A stretch of 64,000 nt of DNA from a virus (lineage: Duplodnaviria; Caudoviricetes): positions 40,034-104,033 of the IMG/VR virus record IMGVR_UViG_3300005440_000008; one strand, given 5' to 3'. Within the stretch, counting starts at the first letter, position 1, and every line of letters begins with the position of its first letter. Positions 1 through 40,016 of the stretch are shown here, piece by piece. A model generated the notes under the pieces. It had not been told where the DNA came from and did no database searches. It worked only from the letters and a program-made list of their open reading frames with translations. The translations under genes were made by a program, and so were the position numbers.

Positions 1-353
1 AAGATCCAGTGCTCGGGCGCGCGGTCATTGTTGAGCTCCTGCTGCAAGAGCTTCACGGCGGTGGCGAGCCCCTGGTTCAGGGCCGCCTCGAACACGAGCA
101 GTCCGAGGCCTTCCGGCAGCTCGTCGCCGTGGATTGGCACCCAACGGTCGCGGTGATGGATGGCGATCGCCTGGTCACGGGATGGTGGCCACGGGGAGAG
201 GGTCGGGTAGAACGTCCGCGCGATCCCGTACCAGGTCTCCTTGCCCCGGTCCCGCGGATCGTTCGAGTGCGTGCCCTCGTGGTCCGGACGGAGCGCGAAC
301 TCGACGGCAGCCAGGAAGCGCGGAGTGAATCGAGGAGGCTGAATCGGAGGCAC
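1..353 (-). CDS. Endolysin, glycoside hydrolase family 108 (partial, runs off window edge)
   Basis: Hand translation from GTG at 353: MPPIQPPRF...HEGTHSNDPRDRGKETWYGIART...VFEAALNQG...VKLLQQEL matches the GH108 EGG..NDP.D.GG.T.YGI motif. Not in the ORF track because it is truncated. Confidence 0.85.
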   Translation of the reverse strand, partial: MPPIQPPRFTPRFLAAVEFALRPDHEGTHSNDPRDRGKETWYGIARTFYPTLSPWPPSRDQAIAIHHRDRWVPIHGDELPEGLGLLVFEAALNQGLATAVKLLQQELNNDRAPEHWI

Positions 354-551
354 GCCCCTACCCTTTCTCGGACCAGCCGCAGCCCGGACAGGCCCAGGGC
401 TGCGCGGGATCCGTCTTGCGGAGCACGGCACGACACGCCGGACATCGGCGCGTCCAGATCAAACCGAAGCGAATGCAGCCCAAACTGGCCAACCCTCCAA
501 ATTGATCAAATCGTCAAACTGACACGATGCGTGACCGCCAGCCGGTTGCGG

Positions 552-22935: not shown

Positions 22936-23508
22936 TCATCCGAGTCGCTCCTGGTTCCCGAGCCGCACATAGCGCTCGGGCCCGCTCGTCCAGTGGGGCT
23001 CCCCCTGGGTGCGGACGGTCTCGTACATCTGGAAGCGCCGCCACCGCTCGAGGTTCTTGAGGATCATCAGCTCGAGGAACACGAGGTCCGCGGTCGCCTG
23101 GTCCGCGCACAGGTGGGTCTGGTAGAGGAGATCGTGCCCCGCCCCTTCCTTGTTGCAGATCCCGCCGAAGCACAGGTAGACGAGCGGCAGCCGGGGTGTC
23201 GAGGCGAGATCCGTCACGAAGCCGATGGGGAAATTGACGCGCGCCCGCAGGACCGCGCTATCGAAGGCGAGCTCGCCCATGATCTCCCACGTTTTGTCCG
23301 GAACCACCTCGCCCACCACGAAGCGGCCATGCCACGCCGGCTCGATCGCGGTCTCGCGCAGGTTGGTGAACCCGGTCGGCCACTCCGCGAGGGCGCCATA
23401 CTCGGCCATCATCTTCGCGTCCCGCTCGGCCGGGGTCGTCCAGCCGAAGACGAGGCCGGTGCGCTCACCGCGGCGCGCGTCCTGGTAGGTGAAGATCGCC
23501 GTCGTCAT
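22936..23508 (-). CDS. DUF1353-domain protein
   Basis: PIGFVTDLASTPR...HDLLY...ADLVFLE motif. Confidence 0.8.
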   Translation of the reverse strand: MTTAIFTYQDARRGERTGLVFGWTTPAERDAKMMAEYGALAEWPTGFTNLRETAIEPAWHGRFVVGEVVPDKTWEIMGELAFDSAVLRARVNFPIGFVTDLASTPRLPLVYLCFGGICNKEGAGHDLLYQTHLCADQATADLVFLELMILKNLERWRRFQMYETVRTQGEPHWTSGPERYVRLGNQERLG

Positions 23509-24182
23509 TGCCTCGCCGGCAGCCCCTCTAGCGCGGGCGGCACCGCCTTCCCACACGTCGGCTCGAGGGACTTCAAGTTGGCGTAGTTGGCGACCTCGCC
23601 GGCGAGCTCCTGCAGCGCCGGCGCGTTCCCCGGCCCGATGGCGCGGAGGCGGTCCGCGATGTGCTGCGGGTTCAGCATCAACAGATGCTCGGTCACGCGC
23701 GCGTCGATCGTGGCGAGATCTCGCCGGAGACACAGCGCCTCGGTGTCCAGGGAGCTGTTCGCCCAGACCATGCGCTCGTCGCTGTGGCCGACCACGGTGA
23801 TGGTCAGGAGCGCCGCGCGCATATAGATCGTCGCCTTGGGCTCGTTCTGCATCACCGCGGCCGTGCCCGCCGCGAGCCCGCCCCCGATGGGGATCAGCTG
23901 CATGGCGATGGACGTCGGCGCAAAGAAGCTGAGCGCCGCCATCGCGGCGACCGACACGCCCGCGGTCAGCGCCCCCGCGTAGAGCGCGTCCCGGTTGATC
24001 CGGCCGCTGACCAGGTAGCCGTCGATCTGCTGGTAGGCCAGCTCCTTCACGTCGGTGTAGGAGGGCCGCAGGACGTCGGTGCGCTGGGTCATGGCCGCGG
24101 GCGGGACCACGCGGGGCACGTGGCCGAGGCTCGTACAGCCGGTCAGCAGGACCGCCAGAAGAACGAGAAGGGGGCGGCGCAT
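23505..24182 (-). CDS. Lipoprotein
   Basis: MRRPLLVLLAVLLTGC lipobox plus an internal hydrophobic hairpin. Confidence 0.75.
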   Translation of the reverse strand: MRRPLLVLLAVLLTGCTSLGHVPRVVPPAAMTQRTDVLRPSYTDVKELAYQQIDGYLVSGRINRDALYAGALTAGVSVAAMAALSFFAPTSIAMQLIPIGGGLAAGTAAVMQNEPKATIYMRAALLTITVVGHSDERMVWANSSLDTEALCLRRDLATIDARVTEHLLMLNPQHIADRLRAIGPGNAPALQELAGEVANYANLKSLEPTCGKAVPPALEGLPARQ

Positions 24183-24185
24183 GGC

Positions 24186-24407
24186 CTATCCCTTCCCCGG
24201 CGGGATGAGCGGCGGAGTCGGGATGCTCCCCGCCAGCCAGAGCAGGACAATGAGGATCAGGATCACGGCGAGGCCCCAGCGGATCCAGCTGTTCCACGGC
24301 TCGGCGAACTTGGCCTTCTCGTGGAGCCAGAACAGGATTCCGCAGACGACGAGGAACAGGCCGATGTAGATGATCGCGTTGACGAGCGTGATCAGAGCGG
24401 GAGCCAT
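24186..24407 (-). CDS. Small two-TM membrane protein (holin candidate)
   Basis: 73 aa, two hydrophobic helices, AAGGAG SD. Confidence 0.6.
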   Translation of the reverse strand: MAPALITLVNAIIYIGLFLVVCGILFWLHEKAKFAEPWNSWIRWGLAVILILIVLLWLAGSIPTPPLIPPGKG

Positions 24408-24456: not shown

Positions 24457-24654
24457 TCATCCTTTCAACCCGATGGGAGCCCGCTCGCTGTTGTCGACGC
24501 CCCGAAATCCGCGGAGGAGCTCGACCGCGTGGAAGCCCGGCACCGCGAAGAGGGCGTACCAGGGGGCGATCCCCTTGATCACGGCGTACCCCAGGAAGAA
24601 CGTGCCAACGAACAGGGGGGCCTGCTTGAGCGCGAGGAGGATCACGTCCTTCAT
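24457..24654 (-). CDS. Small membrane protein
   Basis: Start MKDVILLAL, ATGA overlap, hydrophobic. Confidence 0.5.
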   Translation of the reverse strand: MKDVILLALKQAPLFVGTFFLGYAVIKGIAPWYALFAVPGFHAVELLRGFRGVDNSERAPIGLKG

Positions 24655-25151
24655 TGCGGCCTCGGCTCTTTCGTGAGCACGAGGATCGGGACCTCGCGCA
24701 AGGCATAGCTCACGGTCTTGAGCGGGTTCACCCGCGCGTTGGCGACCCAGACGCGGAACAGGTACGGGCCCGGCGGGAGGTCCTCCGGGATGTAGGTTGG
24801 GAAGCTCCGCGCATAGCAGCCGACCTTGAGCTCGGAGAGGGCGCGCGTCTCGCCGAGCCGGTACTCGAGGCTGTTGCCGAACGAGCGGTACACCATCCCG
24901 GAGACCTGGCGGTGGTAGCAGAAATGCCGCCAGACCGCGGCGCGGGAACCCGCCGGCCAGGCCCGCACCTCCACCGGCTTGGGCTCGTTCGGCTCGCCGA
25001 CCCGGTGGAAGATCGGCGTCCCGATCTCCTCGAACGGCTGATCGAGGTCGAGGACGAGCCAGTAGAAGGCCAGGCACGAGAAGCCCACGATCAGCGTCAG
25101 GGCGACGTTGATGAGCGTGTTCTGGACGCGCGGCCACGTCGGCCAGATCAT
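24651..25151 (-). CDS. N-terminally membrane-anchored protein with beta-sandwich domain
   Basis: TM segment then IPEDLPPGPYLFRV Ig-like motif; ATGA overlap. Confidence 0.6.
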   Translation of the reverse strand: MIWPTWPRVQNTLINVALTLIVGFSCLAFYWLVLDLDQPFEEIGTPIFHRVGEPNEPKPVEVRAWPAGSRAAVWRHFCYHRQVSGMVYRSFGNSLEYRLGETRALSELKVGCYARSFPTYIPEDLPPGPYLFRVWVANARVNPLKTVSYALREVPILVLTKEPRPQ

Positions 25152-25900
25152 GGGAGCGACGCGCCTTTCAGGAACCAGCCGAAGAGCGTGAAGACCCCGA
25201 TGAGCCCGACCCAGAGAAGCCCGATGGTCGCCTTCCGCATCGGCTTGACGTAGCGCTCGATCGTGTCGAGCTGCGTCGTGATCGTGCCGACCGACGTATC
25301 GAGGGAGGTGACCCGTCCCGCGAGCGCGTTGACCTGCTCGCGAAGCCCCTTGCACTCGTCGAGCACCGAGGTATCGAGCCGGCGCCGCTCCTGCCGGAGC
25401 GACAGGACCCAGTACTTCTGCGGGTAAGTCCACCCCTTGAACAGGGCCTCGGCCTCGTGGAAGAGCTCGCGCAGCGGCTCGTGATCGACCAGGGCCTCGT
25501 AGAGCCCTTGATTGATCGCAATCCCGCGCACCGCCTCGGGGAGGTCCCGGAGGCGCGCGGCGAAGTTGATGACGCTCCCGCTGGGCCGCGCGGTCGGCTT
25601 CCACGCCTGCGGGGCGGGCCACCAGGTCAGATCCCCGATCGCCATGCTGATCCGCAGCTCGAGCCCATCCTGGAGATGCGCGTCAATGGCCGCTCGGACC
25701 AGCGGCCCGGCCAGTTCCGAATGCCCGACGAGCAGATGGCCGTCGCCGATCTGCGGCCCCACCCACAGGTCCGGGTCGGTGGCCTTGAAGAGGGCGATCG
25801 CGCGCGCCAGGCGCTCGTCGATCTCCGGCTGGAGAAACTGTGCCCCCGTGCGCTCGGCCTTCGCCGAGCTGTTGACGACGTCGACATACGTGACCGGCAT
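25148..25900 (-). CDS. Class III nucleotide cyclase domain plus coiled coil plus C-terminal TM helix
   Basis: YVDVVNSS (Asp7), IGDG (Asp53), LRISMAIGD, GSVINFAARL, IAINQGLYEAL, FKG. Confidence 0.8.
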   Translation of the reverse strand: MPVTYVDVVNSSAKAERTGAQFLQPEIDERLARAIALFKATDPDLWVGPQIGDGHLLVGHSELAGPLVRAAIDAHLQDGLELRISMAIGDLTWWPAPQAWKPTARPSGSVINFAARLRDLPEAVRGIAINQGLYEALVDHEPLRELFHEAEALFKGWTYPQKYWVLSLRQERRRLDTSVLDECKGLREQVNALAGRVTSLDTSVGTITTQLDTIERYVKPMRKATIGLLWVGLIGVFTLFGWFLKGASLP

Positions 25901-25906
25901 CGCTCC

Positions 25907-26662
25907 CTAGCCGCCGGCTGAGAACGTGCCGTCGTAGGTGGACTGCAGTCCGTCACCCGAGACCAGCGTGATGGCGCCATACACCGTCCGGTCGAAGAGC
26001 ACGCCGACGGCGTCCGCCGAGAAGAGCCCGTGCTCGCGGAGCGCGGCCCCGGGCGTCCCGTCGAGGGTGTTGGTGGCCACGGTCCGGTAGACCGTCGCGC
26101 TCGCCTCGGCGGTGGTGCCGGTCGCGCGGACGTTGCCGGTGTACTCGGTCATCAGCTCGGTGACGAGCGCGGTGTCGCCCGCTGCCTCGGCCGTCGAGCC
26201 CGTGCCGAGGCCGTGATACTTCTCGGTCTCGAGCTCGACAAGGTTCTGGAACGCGTCGACGATGAAGCCGACGCCAACGGTGGTGACAACCTTGAGCCCG
26301 ACCAGGCCGAGCGGGATGGCGCGGCCACTCGCCCGGAAGATGGTGAGGTCGAGCGCGCCCCAGAACGTCGGGATGCCGAGCGTCTGCGCGATCTGGATCT
26401 TCGGGATCCCGCGCAGGAGCAGCCGGCGGTTGGCCCGACGGAAGCGGTTGATCTCGTCCCGGATCTCCGGGTACGGCGAGTCCGACGGCGCGAGGCCGCG
26501 GCGCCACACCTCGGCGAGGGAGAACCGCGCCGCGCCACGGCCGCTGCGGAACTCGGGCGGCTTCCCTTCCTGCGCCATCCGCTGCCGGACGATCGTGAGG
26601 CCGACAGCGCCCGAGGCGCCGGTCCGGCCGCCCACCGCTTGAAGCGCCGCGCGCGGGCTCAT
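25907..26662 (-). CDS. Collar/fibre-attachment-like structural protein
   Basis: GLGTGSTAEAAGDTALVTE and LREHGLF...LFDRTV...GDGLQSTY motifs. Confidence 0.6.
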   Translation of the reverse strand: MSPRAALQAVGGRTGASGAVGLTIVRQRMAQEGKPPEFRSGRGAARFSLAEVWRRGLAPSDSPYPEIRDEINRFRRANRRLLLRGIPKIQIAQTLGIPTFWGALDLTIFRASGRAIPLGLVGLKVVTTVGVGFIVDAFQNLVELETEKYHGLGTGSTAEAAGDTALVTELMTEYTGNVRATGTTAEASATVYRTVATNTLDGTPGAALREHGLFSADAVGVLFDRTVYGAITLVSGDGLQSTYDGTFSAGG

Positions 26663-26969: not shown

Positions 26970-27233
26970 CTAGGGCACAGCGACCGGTTCGGCGAGCGCC
27001 GGGGCGGGGACCACCAGCCCCTCGGCGGCCGCGATCGTGGCCGTCCGGAGCTCCGCCGCGCGGATCCAGTCCTGGAAGCGCTCGTACTTGATGCCGAGGA
27101 GCTCGGCGGCCTGCCGGTGGTTCCCCTGGGCCGCCCGGAGCGCGGTCATGACGTACAGGTTCTTGAGCGCCGCGAGCTCGGCCTCGACGTTCACGGGCAC
27201 GCGGATGCGGAGGGCGCCGACGAGCTCGGACAT
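26970..27233 (-). CDS. Fis-type HTH protein
   Basis: ALRAAQGNHRQAAELLGI motif. Confidence 0.8.
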   Translation of the reverse strand: MSELVGALRIRVPVNVEAELAALKNLYVMTALRAAQGNHRQAAELLGIKYERFQDWIRAAELRTATIAAAEGLVVPAPALAEPVAVP

Positions 27234-27919
27234 CAGCGGGCGCCCTCGGTCAGGGTGACCAGCTCGGCCGACTCGGATCCCGGCATCTCGATCGGGATCC
27301 GGACGTCGACGGCGGCCAGGTACTGCATGTAGAAGCGCCCGTCGAGCCCGGGCCAGAGCGTCGAGCCGACGACCTTGTGGCCGACGCGGACATCGCAGTC
27401 GAGCGCCGGCGCGTACCCGGCGGCCGCGGCGCGGAAGCAGAAGTCGAAGTCCTCCTGGAGCGCGTCCATCTCGATCTGGCCGCAGCGGAACCAGGGCGGC
27501 GTGAGCGCCTCCCAGACGCACCGGCGGACGAGGAGGCAGCCGGTGCCGACGGCGGGCACGTCGAGGAGCCCCGTGCGCGGCAGATCGGCCAGGAGCCAGC
27601 GCGCCGGGTGCGGCTCGAGGCTCCGGACCGCCGAGGTGCGGAAGGGCGGGAAGCGCTCGAGCACGACGGCGGACACGAGGGGCAATTCGCGCGCGAGGAG
27701 CCGCGGGAGCATGGTCGTCGTCGGAATGCAGTCCGAGTCGAGGAACAGGACCCAGTCCCCGATGGCCGCCGCGAGCCCGAGGTTCCGCTGCCGCGGGATC
27801 TGATTGCCCTGGACGTCCTGGAGCTTCACCGTGCGCGGCAGCGTGCGCGTCCAGTGGAGCAGCTCGGTCGCGACCGTCCCCTGGTGGAGGATGACGACGG
27901 TGCCGCGCTCGTCGGTCAC
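27233..27919 (-). CDS. Glycosyltransferase family 2
   Basis: RN...GDWVLFLDSD, VGTGCLLVRR, EDFDFC, VGH. Confidence 0.9.
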   Translation of the reverse strand: MTDERGTVVILHQGTVATELLHWTRTLPRTVKLQDVQGNQIPRQRNLGLAAAIGDWVLFLDSDCIPTTTMLPRLLARELPLVSAVVLERFPPFRTSAVRSLEPHPARWLLADLPRTGLLDVPAVGTGCLLVRRCVWEALTPPWFRCGQIEMDALQEDFDFCFRAAAAGYAPALDCDVRVGHKVVGSTLWPGLDGRFYMQYLAAVDVRIPIEMPGSESAELVTLTEGAR

Positions 27920-29458: not shown

Positions 29459-30697
29459 TTAGGCCGCGTTGACCTTGATCAGCTGGACGGTGTCCAGCGC
29501 GGCGATGCCGCCGTAGTACCGCGCCTTGAACCGCGCCACGACGTCGCGCCGGAACTGGGCCTCGTCGTCCTGCCGCGCGCGGAAGGTCTGGAGCGGCCAG
29601 ATCTCCTGCCAGATGAACTGCGCCTTCGGATCGCCGATGAACCAGTCGGAACTGTCGTTGTACTGGCTGCCCGACAGGGAGGCGAGGTAGTCCAGCAGCG
29701 GGCTCGAGAGCGGCTTCAGCCCCGGGGCCAGGGTGCCGAGCGGATTGGCCGTATCGAACTGCATGCCGGTGCCGGCGGTGATGTCCCCGCTCCGGACCGT
29801 GATCGCGTTCGCGATCCGCGCGGCCGTCCCCCAGAGCTTCCGGGCCACGAGCAGGACCTTGGGCATCCAGATGATGGGCAGCTGCTCGTCGGTCCGCGCG
29901 CGGTCGTCGCGGACGGTCGTCGCGTGATACTGGAAGACCTCGTCGAGGTCGGTCCAGTCGACCAGCTGGATGGGGCCGGCGGCGAGGTTCTTGTTGGTGG
30001 CCGAGTAGAGCGCGGCCGCCGTGCCGTTCGGCCGGTACACCGACCGGTACTTGATCCCGTTGGCCACGAGATCGGCGGCGCCGGCCACGTCGACGATGCC
30101 GCCGAGGATGATGAGCTCGCGCTCCTGGCGGGTGGCTTCCCCGAGCCGGCTCGCCCGCAGGAGGATCTGGCCGGTCTGGTCGTGGAAGATCGCCTCCTCG
30201 GTGATCTCGAGGATCCGGCCCTTCTTCGCCGTTTCCGTGGTGACGTACTTCTCCGCGAAGCTCGACTCCTCGTAGGGCATCCCCTCGGGCACTTCCTTGG
30301 GGCCTTCCAGCGAGGTGAAGCCGACGATGCGCTCACTCTTGAGCCGCGACTGCATGACGGTGACGAGCTGGTCCCCGATCGCGCCCTCGAGGCCGTAGTA
30401 GCCTTCGATGATGCGGCTGGCGATCAGCATGCCGGTGGCGCTCGGGAAGACCGTGGACTCGAGCGCCTCCTGCATCTCGATGTAGTTGAAGCGTCCGGGC
30501 GAGCGCTGGGACGGGAGGGTCTGCTCGCAGGGGCCGACCGTGGCTTCCCAGAGCGCGCGCAGCGGGAACTCCTCCGCGCGATGCTTGCGGATCTCCTTGC
30601 CGGTCTCGTCGCGGCCTTCCAGCAGGAGCCCGATGATCTCGACGAACCCGGCCGGACCGACCCGGTTCAGGATGCCCTTCATCTCGTCTCGTCGCAT
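29459..30697 (-). CDS. Major capsid protein (HK97 fold, Mu gpT-like)
   Basis: 412 aa; V.EG..Y, KKGRILEITEEAI..D, PKVLLV, RYYGG motifs; AGGAGG SD. Confidence 0.9.
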   Translation of the reverse strand: MRRDEMKGILNRVGPAGFVEIIGLLLEGRDETGKEIRKHRAEEFPLRALWEATVGPCEQTLPSQRSPGRFNYIEMQEALESTVFPSATGMLIASRIIEGYYGLEGAIGDQLVTVMQSRLKSERIVGFTSLEGPKEVPEGMPYEESSFAEKYVTTETAKKGRILEITEEAIFHDQTGQILLRASRLGEATRQERELIILGGIVDVAGAADLVANGIKYRSVYRPNGTAAALYSATNKNLAAGPIQLVDWTDLDEVFQYHATTVRDDRARTDEQLPIIWMPKVLLVARKLWGTAARIANAITVRSGDITAGTGMQFDTANPLGTLAPGLKPLSSPLLDYLASLSGSQYNDSSDWFIGDPKAQFIWQEIWPLQTFRARQDDEAQFRRDVVARFKARYYGGIAALDTVQLIKVNAA

Positions 30698-37971: not shown

Positions 37972-39396
37972 TCACAGGAAGCTCCCCCCGAACTCGTCGT
38001 CGGGGATCTCGCCCTGGAGCTCGGACTCGTCGAAGGGGGGCACGACGATCGCGCCGGCGAGCTTGTTGAAGGCCCCGCTCGCGCCGTCCACCTGGTCGTC
38101 CTGGGGTCCAGTGGGGAAGCCATGCAGCTCGTCCAGAAACGCCTTGTTCCACGCGCCCTGCACGAGCAGGACGTTGCCGACCTCGGCCTGGGCCGAGAGC
38201 GGCTGGGCCCGCGTCACCTTGTCGCCCGTCGGGCGCTCGGCGTGGACGTTCCAGCCGGCGAGCATGCGGATGGTCGCCTCCGCGCTTTCCTTCCCTCCAG
38301 AGCCCGGCTCTTGCTCAGACCAGATCGCGCAGCCGAGGCCGTCCGTCTGGGCGGTCTGCTTGATCACTTCGTTGCGCCGCGCGCTCGACCACTGCCCCCG
38401 CACGACGTCCTCGACGAAGTAGAGCCCCTGCTCCGTCCGGGCCATGCGCACGCCGGCGGAGTACGACCCGCCGCCCTCGGTCCCCGCCTTGTCCCAGTAC
38501 CGGATGCGGGCGATGACGTCGGTGGCCACGGCATCGACGATCCGGAACCAGCCGCGGTTGAAGACGAGGCCGGCCTCGGGGCGGATCTTCCAGTTCCCGC
38601 CAAGCAGGCGCGCGCGCTCGACCGGCGGCAGCGCGTACAGGTTGGCCAGGTACGAGGGGTCCCGCGACAGCAGGGCCGGGTTGTCGTGCACCAGCGCCGG
38701 GACGAACGTCATCGACTTCGGCGGGATGTCCGGGTGGAGGACGGCCAGCTCCTCGGGGGTGTCGGCCCACACGAGGGTGCCCTCCACGCGGATGAACCAG
38801 CGGAGCTGCCCCGCGCGCGCCGGGATCGGAAAGCCGGTGTCCTGGTCGATCCACCAGGTGATCAGCTCCGCCACCCACGAGTCGGCATCCGGGTTCGTCG
38901 TCGCGCGGATGTACGGCCGCACCCCGCACGTCGAGCGGCTCCGGGAGAACATGTAGAAGAACTGCTCCTCGGTGAACCCGGTCAGCTCGTCGAACCCGAT
39001 GAACGGGATCTGCGAGCCCTGCCAGTCGAAGCGGTTCTTCTCGTGCTCCATGTGGGCGAAGCGGAGTCGGTTGCCATGGGGCGGGAAGTACCACTCGAGC
39101 GTGCTCTCCTTGGGCACGGCGCCGAGCGCGGGGTAGATCAGGTAGGACTCGTCCCAGAGCCCGCCCTCGTTGGTGATCTGGGGGCTCGTCCGCCGGAAGA
39201 CGACCGCGCCGAATCCGTTCACCGTGCGCATATAGCGGAGGGGTTCGAGGAGGAGCGCGAAGCTCTTCCCCGACCCGGCGCCTCCGCCGTAGATCGCGAC
39301 GTCGGCGTGGGTTGACAGGAATAGCTCTTGGGGGCCCCTTTGCGGACGGAGCACGCGCGGCGCCGGCGCGGCTTGAGCCGGAGCGGTGGCGCTCAC
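37972..39396 (-). CDS. terL: Terminase large subunit
   Basis: PQRGPQ, Walker A GGGAGSGKS, Walker B IGFDEL, ATTNP, DDQVDG. Confidence 0.95.
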   Translation of the reverse strand: MSATAPAQAAPAPRVLRPQRGPQELFLSTHADVAIYGGGAGSGKSFALLLEPLRYMRTVNGFGAVVFRRTSPQITNEGGLWDESYLIYPALGAVPKESTLEWYFPPHGNRLRFAHMEHEKNRFDWQGSQIPFIGFDELTGFTEEQFFYMFSRSRSTCGVRPYIRATTNPDADSWVAELITWWIDQDTGFPIPARAGQLRWFIRVEGTLVWADTPEELAVLHPDIPPKSMTFVPALVHDNPALLSRDPSYLANLYALPPVERARLLGGNWKIRPEAGLVFNRGWFRIVDAVATDVIARIRYWDKAGTEGGGSYSAGVRMARTEQGLYFVEDVVRGQWSSARRNEVIKQTAQTDGLGCAIWSEQEPGSGGKESAEATIRMLAGWNVHAERPTGDKVTRAQPLSAQAEVGNVLLVQGAWNKAFLDELHGFPTGPQDDQVDGASGAFNKLAGAIVVPPFDESELQGEIPDDEFGGSFL

Positions 39397-40016
39397 GAGA
39401 CTGGCCGCCCGTTGTCGGGGAGGTAGATCACCACGCTCTCGCCGGGCACCTCGGCCAGGGGCTTGCCGTCGCGCCCGAAAACCTTCGTGGTGGGGAACAC
39501 GCCGAGGTGCTTGCCGAGGAGCTGGAGGGCCTCGGTCTTGTCGTAGAGGCGGATCCGCTTGGCGGTGCCCGCCGGCGTGTCGTGTGACGAGACCTCGGCG
39601 ACGCAGGCGGCGTCCTCCAGGGTGGCGCTGTCCTTGAACAGCACCCCCGTCGGGCCCCACGACGTGAACGTGCGGATGTCGGAGAAGCCGATCTTGACGA
39701 GCTCGGCCACGACCTGGTCGGCGCTGACCTCGAGACGCTGCGCACGCGCGGCCATCCGGGCCTGCAGGGCCGCCTGGACGGTAGCATTCGCTAGCAGCCG
39801 GACGCCCTGCACGTTGGCCCCGCGTCGGCTGTACCCGGCACGGATGACGGCCTGGGTGGCGTTGAGATCCTTGAGGTATTCGGCGACGAAGGCCTGGCGA
39901 CGGGGGGACAGCGTGGACGCCGACTTCCGAGCGGGTCGGGCGGGAGGCGACGGCGGGGGCGAAACCGGAGGCGCATGGCGGCCGTGACGTCGCGCGCCTT
40001 TCCGTTTCGCGGTCAC
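39393..40016 (-). CDS. terS: Terminase small subunit
   Basis: FVAEYLKDLNATQAVIRAGYS...LGKHLG. Confidence 0.95.
   Translation of the reverse strand: MTAKRKGARRHGRHAPPVSPPPSPPARPARKSASTLSPRRQAFVAEYLKDLNATQAVIRAGYSRRGANVQGVRLLANATVQAALQARMAARAQRLEVSADQVVAELVKIGFSDIRTFTSWGPTGVLFKDSATLEDAACVAEVSSHDTPAGTAKRIRLYDKTEALQLLGKHLGVFPTTKVFGRDGKPLAEVPGESVVIYLPDNGRPVS

Follow-up and report, generated by a model that had tools for sequence, protein, structure and literature searches.

The gene considered here encodes a membrane-anchored member of the class III nucleotide cyclase superfamily and lies in the late region of an uncultured phage of the Caudoviricetes. The stretch of DNA analysed, referred to below as the window, comprises 64,000 nucleotides and corresponds to positions 40034-104033 of the virus record IMGVR_UViG_3300005440_000008 in IMG/VR, which is 104,033 bp long. 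The record carries direct terminal repeats and a completeness rating of 100%, and the GC content of the phage is ~70%. At window positions 25148-25900 (stop codon included; minus strand), the list of open reading frames (ORFs) and its translation give the gene for P0001, a protein of 250 aa consisting of a cyclase homology domain, a coiled coil and a transmembrane (TM) helix. Its ATG is preceded by GGAG at a gap of 2 nt and starts 6 nt from the stop codon of the preceding gene, and its TGA overlaps the ATG of the following gene (ATGA, 25148-25151). Because consecutive stop and start codons overlap in this way, the cyclase gene is a member of a translationally coupled block in the late operon. 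An earlier reading of the DNA from its letters alone (the sequence-only reading) had placed a phage-encoded, membrane-anchored class III cyclase of the late operon at exactly this position. That description withstood the analysis: the record is a complete virus genome with terminal repeats, the gene sits between the head/neck and the fibre/tail genes on one strand, and both the cyclase domain and the membrane anchor were recovered, as described below.

The fold of P0001 and its homology to class III cyclases can be regarded as settled, with very little doubt remaining, from a structural model together with profile comparisons. The minimal class III cyclase homology domain occupies residues 1-166 (25403-25900, minus strand), as delimited by fold matches, the family profile and the conserved residues, and begins with its first strand at residue 2, without an N-terminal extension or signalling helix. 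When AlphaFold2 (AF2) was supplied with an alignment of the family (A1, described below), the predicted local distance difference test score (pLDDT) reached 88 overall and >90 over residues 1-165; without an alignment the pLDDT was 46, and that model was discarded. Comparison of model residues 1-169 by VIA-align returned Z-scores of 20.1 to Rv1900c (1ybu; root-mean-square deviation (rmsd) of 2.1 Å over 157 residues), 19.2-19.6 to Ma1120, 19.0 to a eukaryotic guanylate cyclase and 17.1 to the Pycsar cUMP synthase 7r65. The top matches of Foldseek in the PDB were all class III cyclase catalytic domains, with a probability of 1.00 to >40 cyclase entries, and the ESM Atlas, independently of the AF2 result, gave TM-scores of 0.82-0.88 to PF00211 clusters. 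Further, the family profile A1 matched Silicibacter 3mr7 (E 1.2e-9), CyaB 3r5g (E 4.6e-8), Rv1264 (E 3.5e-7), Ma1120 (E 6.7e-7) and Rv1900c (E 8.8e-7) in the PDB; hhalign aligned A1 with a hydrolase-cyclase protein carrying PF00211 (probability 95.9, E 5e-9); and PF00211 was matched individually by 5 of the 20 family members, at best with E 3.3e-6. With 19 relatives, a profile E-value of 1.2e-9 and a fold Z-score of ~20, the class III assignment lies well beyond chance. The cyclase fold on which the sequence-only reading depended is thus present (pLDDT 88, Z 20.1). Other identities were considered and set aside. A spurious ORF of the kind met in high-GC DNA is ruled out by the homologues and the confident fold, a GGDEF or polymerase palm domain by top structural matches that are all class III cyclases, and a virion protein is unlikely given a TM anchor and a cytoplasmic enzyme domain.

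The active site of class III cyclases forms at the interface of a head-to-tail dimer and combines two Asp residues that bind metal, a pair that specifies the substrate and an Asn/Arg pair for the transition state; in Rv1625c these are D256/D300, K296/D365 and N372/R376, respectively (PMC4174876). The corresponding residues of P0001 were mapped through hidden Markov model (HMM) and hhalign alignments and the spacing rules of Rv1625c. The metal-binding residues are D7 (25880-25882) and D53 (25742-25744), which align to the Asp pair of 3mr7, Rv1264 and P0021, and the transition-state residues are N112 (25565-25567) and R116 (25553-25555) in the motif VINFAAR, spaced as N372/R376 of Rv1625c (all on the minus strand). 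The two Asp residues and the NFAAR motif that had been noticed from the sequence therefore align to those of solved class III cyclases. The same reading had called the base-specifying positions atypical, naming PQIGD and ARPSG, and in substance this stands as well: the canonical Lys position (four residues before the second Asp) is P49 in P0001, whereas the second position had been placed one residue off, since by the Rv1625c spacing (D365/N372) the canonical Asp lies seven residues before the Asn and falls on R105 rather than A104.

Conservation was tabulated over 20 members, namely P0001 and its 19 relatives, with counts taken where a position is present. D7 is kept in 19/19, D53 in 20/20 and R116 in 20/20; S11, part of the phosphate-loop motif D-x-x-G-S-T, is kept in 18/19, R83 in 16/20, and the basic residue of the K/R-G motif (K155; K or R) in 17/20. 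The two base-reading positions behave differently, the Lys position being P in eight of the 20 members, E in three and K in one, and the Asp position T in nine, N in three and R in two. Judged from the aligned sequences, the metal, phosphate and transition-state machinery is under selection, and the residues that usually read the base are lacking, their positions being variable. It should be noted that the substrate pair sets specificity and not membership of the fold family. The pattern favours catalysis, short of proving activity, and the lack of the canonical Lys/Asp (or Glu/Cys) pair makes the base unpredictable. On this basis we consider P0001 to be probably, though by no means securely, a working enzyme.

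The domain is followed by a heptad coiled coil at residues 179-220 (25241-25366, minus strand), read from the sequence as a 3-4 hydrophobic repeat of five heptads from L186 to V218. A single helix spans residues 177-246 in the AF2 model, coiled-coil families in Pfam match P0001 weakly, and a phmmer search of the PDB with P0001 found the coiled-coil tail only (the C-terminal coiled coil and TM helix of 8qox, E 1.8e-4). The coiled coil is likely a dimerising stalk, and its heptads make a pairing of chains plausible. Residues 224-244 form the C-terminal TM helix (25169-25231, minus strand; hydropathy peak 226-244, score 2.14), after which a tail of 6 aa remains, so that the order of coiled coil and membrane helix given by the sequence-only reading was recovered. 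Because K219, R222 and K223 precede the TM helix and six residues follow it, the protein is predicted to be tail-anchored with a cytoplasmic cyclase domain; the cytoplasm supplies both nucleoside triphosphates (NTPs) and Mg. A TM helix after the domain is found in at least 15 of the 20 family members, which adopt three layouts: domain, coiled coil and TM helix; domain, TM helix and external coiled coil; and domain with coiled coil only.

Placed among known cyclases by relative profile E-values and Z-scores, P0001 is, as far as model and alignments can tell, a member of the class III superfamily closest to the small mycobacterial-type adenylyl cyclases. Mycobacterium avium Ma1120 (4wp9, 5d15), Mycobacterium tuberculosis Rv1900c/LipJ (1ybt, 1ybu), Silicibacter 3mr7, Rv1264 and Pseudomonas aeruginosa CyaB share its fold with Z-scores of 18-20 and an rmsd of ~2 Å over ~155 residues. 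Minimal bacterial adenylyl cyclases are similarly small and have the same Asp pair, Asn/Arg pair and basic K/R-G motif. In contrast to them, P0001 lacks the Lys/Asp pair (P49, R105), is only 17-21% identical, has its domain at the N-terminus with the coiled coil and a C-terminal TM anchor after it, and is encoded by a phage and linked to lysis cassettes. In known class III enzymes, sensor or membrane modules mostly stand before the cyclase domain.

An exhaustive phmmer search over 1.84 billion representatives identified 19 relatives of 245-326 aa (E 1e-27 to 8e-4), all of them metagenomic, which were aligned as A1; identities within the family range from 21 to 36%. A word-indexed search with P0001 found only P0001 itself, and the family profile added one member and a canonical cyclase. 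Among 50,697 deposited phage genomes, tblastn found no match to the cyclase, to the 166-aa bitopic protein encoded next to it or to a nearby 225-aa lipoprotein (both described below). Similarly, no further loci were found in viral contigs (A1, P0001, A3 and A4), genome contigs (lipoprotein pair) or metagenome contigs (A4), and BFVD holds just a handful of viral proteins with a cyclase fold. The readable contexts of the relatives all look phage-derived, and the family seems confined to phage-like contigs.

The gene neighbourhoods of these relatives provide the link to lysis. The sample comprised 11 distinct contexts, and in six of them an endolysin is encoded within four genes of the cyclase. 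The endolysins belong to four families: M15_2 (L002), GH108 (L003 and L013), SLT (the P0007 contig and L011) and M15_3 (L014). Holin-like small TM genes and genes for spanin-like lipoprotein or coiled-coil proteins usually accompany them. L002 encodes a receiver-PAS protein, the M15 endolysin, a 2-TM protein and, three genes after the cyclase homologue and adjoining the endolysin and the 2-TM protein, a lipoprotein; L003 has two holin-like proteins, the GH108 endolysin, small TM proteins and a lipoprotein; and the P0007 contig has three small proteins and the SLT endolysin. SLT lies two genes upstream of the cyclase homologue in L011, with a 2-TM protein and a lipoprotein/coiled-coil protein encoded downstream, whereas the neighbours are a homologue of the bitopic protein of the window and then GH108 in L013, and a TM protein and then M15_3 in L014. 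Of the other contexts, L004 encodes a receiver protein upstream of the cyclase homologue and a holin-like protein on its downstream side; in L007/L008 the homologue is preceded by a GerE helix-turn-helix protein and followed by membrane and lipoprotein genes; and no lysis genes were seen in L005 or L009/L010. In L007, the second gene after the cyclase homologue (2325-2822) encodes a 165-aa lipoprotein-like protein with the motif HELVH; because this is an HExxH motif, a metallopeptidase is suggested, and the protein could be an unrecognised lysis enzyme. By our own rough binomial estimate, which assumes a chance of ~0.1 per context of finding an endolysin (itself a rough figure) and is taken over the nine sufficiently annotated contexts, such adjacency has a probability of ~1e-4. 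Two pairs of genes are shared between contexts, the cyclase with the 225-aa lipoprotein in the window and L002, and the cyclase with its bitopic partner in the window and L013.

In the phage itself, the gene whose ATG overlaps the cyclase stop codon (24651-25151, minus strand) encodes the 166-aa bitopic protein, which has an N-terminal TM helix and an immunoglobulin (Ig)-like beta-sandwich. In the ESM Atlas it belongs to viral clusters of unknown function and matches a CARDB-like fold. Its homologue in L013 (2231-2869) lies directly downstream of P0014 and is 38% identical (E 2e-29), and on the strength of this similarity the bitopic protein is taken to be a conserved downstream partner of the cyclase. 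The cyclases of the window and L013 are 24% identical, yet their bitopic partners are 38% identical. Next come, all on the minus strand, a 65-aa small membrane protein (24457-24654), called from hydropathy, whose gene has an ATGA overlap with the preceding gene and which matches no family; a holin-like 73-aa protein with two TM helices (24186-24407; hydropathy peaks 8-26 and 44-62) and a strong AAGGAG ribosome-binding site; and the 225-aa lipoprotein (23505-24182), with the lipobox LLTGC and a central hydrophobic segment. The last of these is kept beside the cyclase in L002 (10329-11000; 49% identical, E 1.7e-55) and has a weak PHROG match to 'Rz-like spanin' that covers the signal peptide only; it is possibly a spanin-like or other envelope component. 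A gene for a DUF1353 protein lies downstream of it. The gene directly upstream of the cyclase (25907-26662, minus strand) encodes a protein with one hydrophobic segment, the C-terminal 100 residues of which match PHROG 5417 (unknown function) with E 5e-11; its start codon is uncertain, the sequence being high in GC. Midway along the late structural operon, and three genes before the cyclase gene, 26970-27236 (minus strand) encodes a protein of ~88 aa that contains a helix-turn-helix of the Fis type (HTH_8, E 0.003). In relatives the cyclase gene adjoins one for a GerE helix-turn-helix protein (L007/L008) or for receiver-domain proteins (L002, L004).

Nearly all genes from ~40 kb to the left edge of the window are on the minus strand, in the order terminase, head/neck genes, cyclase region, fibres, spike and tail, and finally a GH108 endolysin at the left window edge. 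The large terminase (37975-39660, minus strand) is ~54-55% identical to terminases of Rhizobium phages and of Methanoculleus (archaeal) viruses, and the putative major capsid protein (29459-30697) had no tblastn match among the 50,697 deposited phage genomes. Neither tRNAs nor an integrase were found in the phage. A scan of 20-31 kb found no promoter; the terminator scan of the same region returned one terminator-like site, within a gene, which is fewer than the shuffled expectation. The GH108 gene, cut by the window edge (window 1-431; genome 39841-40464; minus strand), was recognised by PF05838 (E 7.9e-14 at genome 40102-40317), and the SLT, Phage_lysozyme and Amidase_2 models found nothing in the phage. 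The gene stands at the far end of the tail module, with no obvious membrane protein gene after it.

These observations can be joined into a tentative mechanism. P0001 would be a tail-anchored protein of the inner membrane whose cytoplasmic residues 1-166 act as a minimal class III nucleotidyl cyclase domain. The heptad coiled coil of ~40 residues would pair two chains into a head-to-tail dimer and thereby complete the active sites, D7 and D53 being contributed by one chain and N112 and R116 by the other. Late in infection, the dimer would convert a nucleoside triphosphate at the membrane to a 3',5'-cyclic nucleotide and pyrophosphate, and would in this way control lysis, by timing or triggering it, perhaps in concert with the bitopic Ig-like membrane protein encoded by the translationally coupled gene. 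We put the probability of this reading as a whole, namely that P0001 is an active nucleotide cyclase, dimeric and tethered to the membrane, with a part in the control of lysis, at roughly 45%, given what sequence and model indicate. Lysis control is the most likely role because the family seems phage-confined and usually lies within lysis cassettes or leads them, although the involvement of P0001 in lysis remains a more tentative proposition than its catalytic activity. Of the three roles that the sequence-only reading had offered, namely host signalling, immunity and lysis timing, lysis is favoured by the neighbourhoods of the relatives, by association only; its further idea that the nucleotide might be sequestered found nothing in its support. 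A more specific and rather unlikely version of the lysis proposal is that the cyclase and the bitopic protein form a split receptor-cyclase in the inner membrane. Such a pair would detect a signal from the envelope or the periplasm (superinfection, membrane potential and holin build-up being examples) and would time lysis via a cyclic nucleotide, the base of which might be non-canonical.

Several observations weigh against an active cyclase that serves lysis. P0001 alone has no relevant match in Pfam, none in PADLOC and no informative one in PHROG, and PF00211 finds nothing in the whole phage genome even at E 10. The substrate-specifying pair (Lys/Asp for ATP, Glu/Cys-type for GTP) is absent in P0001. 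The ribose-orienting Asn corresponding to N112 is kept in 12 of the 20 family members and replaced in eight; because of this replacement and the non-canonical base-reading positions, some or all members could be binding-only. With regard to lysis, the GH108 endolysin, the sole endolysin detected in the phage, shares the strand of the cyclase but is encoded ~24 kb further downstream, so that the lysis genes seem to be split between two places, the endolysin and the holin-like small membrane genes; the small membrane proteins and the lipoprotein adjacent to the cyclase have no convincing match to a holin or spanin family; and in L005, L009/L010 and L007/L008 no endolysin adjoins the cyclase homologue. 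Finally, the whole 104-kb genome encodes no cyclic nucleoside monophosphate (cNMP)-binding domain (PF00027, E 1), GAF domain (PF01590), GAF_2 domain (PF13185) or receiver domain, which extends to the entire phage the earlier remark that no cNMP-binding effector is visible; any receptor for a cyclic nucleotide would then have to be host-encoded or of an unfamiliar kind.

An alternative is that P0001 is a pseudo-cyclase, which would bind an NTP, or monitor the energy or nucleotide state of the cell, without cyclising; its coiled coil and TM helix would then let it serve as a lysis accessory of the antiholin or XhlA kind. The missing Lys/Asp pair, the replaced Asn and the lack of a cNMP receptor in the phage agree with such a role, as does the position of the gene next to holin-like genes. 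Further, the C-terminal 70 residues are laid out as in XhlA-type proteins, which likewise have a short coiled coil and a single TM helix, and residues 181-245 match PHROG 1193 'hemolysin' weakly (E 0.088). XhlA-type proteins and antiholins (PBSX XhlA, T4 RI and RIII, P1 LydB) resemble the P0001 family in their lysis cassette position and presumed modulatory role, but unlike P0001 they have no enzyme domain; the resemblance to LydB, a weak language-model lead (0.85, ESM Atlas), concerns the neighbouring 166-aa protein and not the cyclase. However, the Pfam XhlA model is unmatched at E 10, and the metal Asp pair and the transition-state Arg are invariant at identities of 21-36%, a pattern expected of catalysis and not of mere binding. 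In addition, one of the replacements of the Asn is a His, in the relative P0003, and Rv1900c is an active cyclase in which His replaces the Asn. We therefore regard a pseudo-cyclase as unlikely. It appears about equally improbable that P0001 is an active cyclase used for host manipulation or counter-defence, for example by elevating cAMP or cGMP so that host regulators are rewired, or by producing a nucleotide that disturbs immune signalling through cyclic nucleotides, in which case its proximity to lysis genes would reflect shared late expression. This possibility draws on the distant endolysin of this phage, on the three contexts without lysis genes nearby and on the signalling-type neighbours of close relatives (receiver-PAS in L002, receiver in L004, GerE in L007/L008). 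To our knowledge, the published phage class III cyclases are annotations only. Among them, other roles have been proposed, as for the CHASE2-class III adenylate cyclase that is carried by the curli (T8SS) module of pelagiphages (Wittmers et al. 2022, PMC9599517). That enzyme resembles P0001 in being phage-encoded, class III, membrane-associated and annotated from metagenomic phage genomes, and a CHASE2-type cyclase, A0A6J5RWB7, is among the few viral structural matches. It is, however, ~670 aa long, carries a CHASE2 sensor at its N-terminus and several TM helices ahead of the cyclase domain, and is encoded alongside curli secretion genes, whereas P0001 is tail-anchored, has 250 aa and belongs to a family that travels with holin-like, endolysin and spanin-like genes. 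Against host manipulation, late, operon-internal expression would leave little time for reprogramming the host, the absence of an integrase makes a lysogenic moron role unlikely, membrane tethering is conserved, and adjacency to endolysins of four families in six of 11 contexts is hard to reconcile with chance. A far slimmer prospect is a phage-captured pyrimidine cyclase of the Pycsar type, making cCMP or cUMP, a link that the sequence-only reading had raised. Pycsar is a host defence in which a cNMP-activated effector adjoins the cyclase. PycC (7r65, 8jsz) shares with P0001 a class III-type fold (Z 17.1 for 7r65), non-canonical base recognition and a setting of phage-bacterium conflict, and PycC is matched by one of the 20 family members (E 0.04). 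In contrast to Pycsar cyclases, P0001 is encoded in a phage late operon rather than a defence island, and no cNMP-binding effector accompanies it. Moreover, P0001 matches neither the PycC model nor any other PADLOC family at E 10, its fold is closer to the mycobacterial adenylyl cyclases (Z 19-20), and the family profile scores E 1.1 against the uridylate cyclase 8jsz compared with 1e-9 to 1e-6 for adenylyl cyclases. P0001 is thus not a member of Pycsar.

The timing of phage lysis is controlled by holins, antiholins and membrane potential, and we know of no enzyme making a second messenger that takes part in it. Our literature search likewise returned no report of a phage lysis cassette that contains a cyclase. 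What is new here is the architecture and the genomic setting, the enzyme fold being already known. An apparently phage-confined, membrane-tethered family with conserved catalytic residues beside four unrelated families of endolysins suggests that some phages use a cyclic nucleotide in lysis. If the split receptor-cyclase were true, it would add a second-messenger layer to lysis control and be a functional analogue of T4 lysis inhibition; if the protein were inactive, a signalling-enzyme fold would have been reused as a lysis accessory. Given the missing base-reading residues, the family is also a candidate source of unusual nucleotide specificity.

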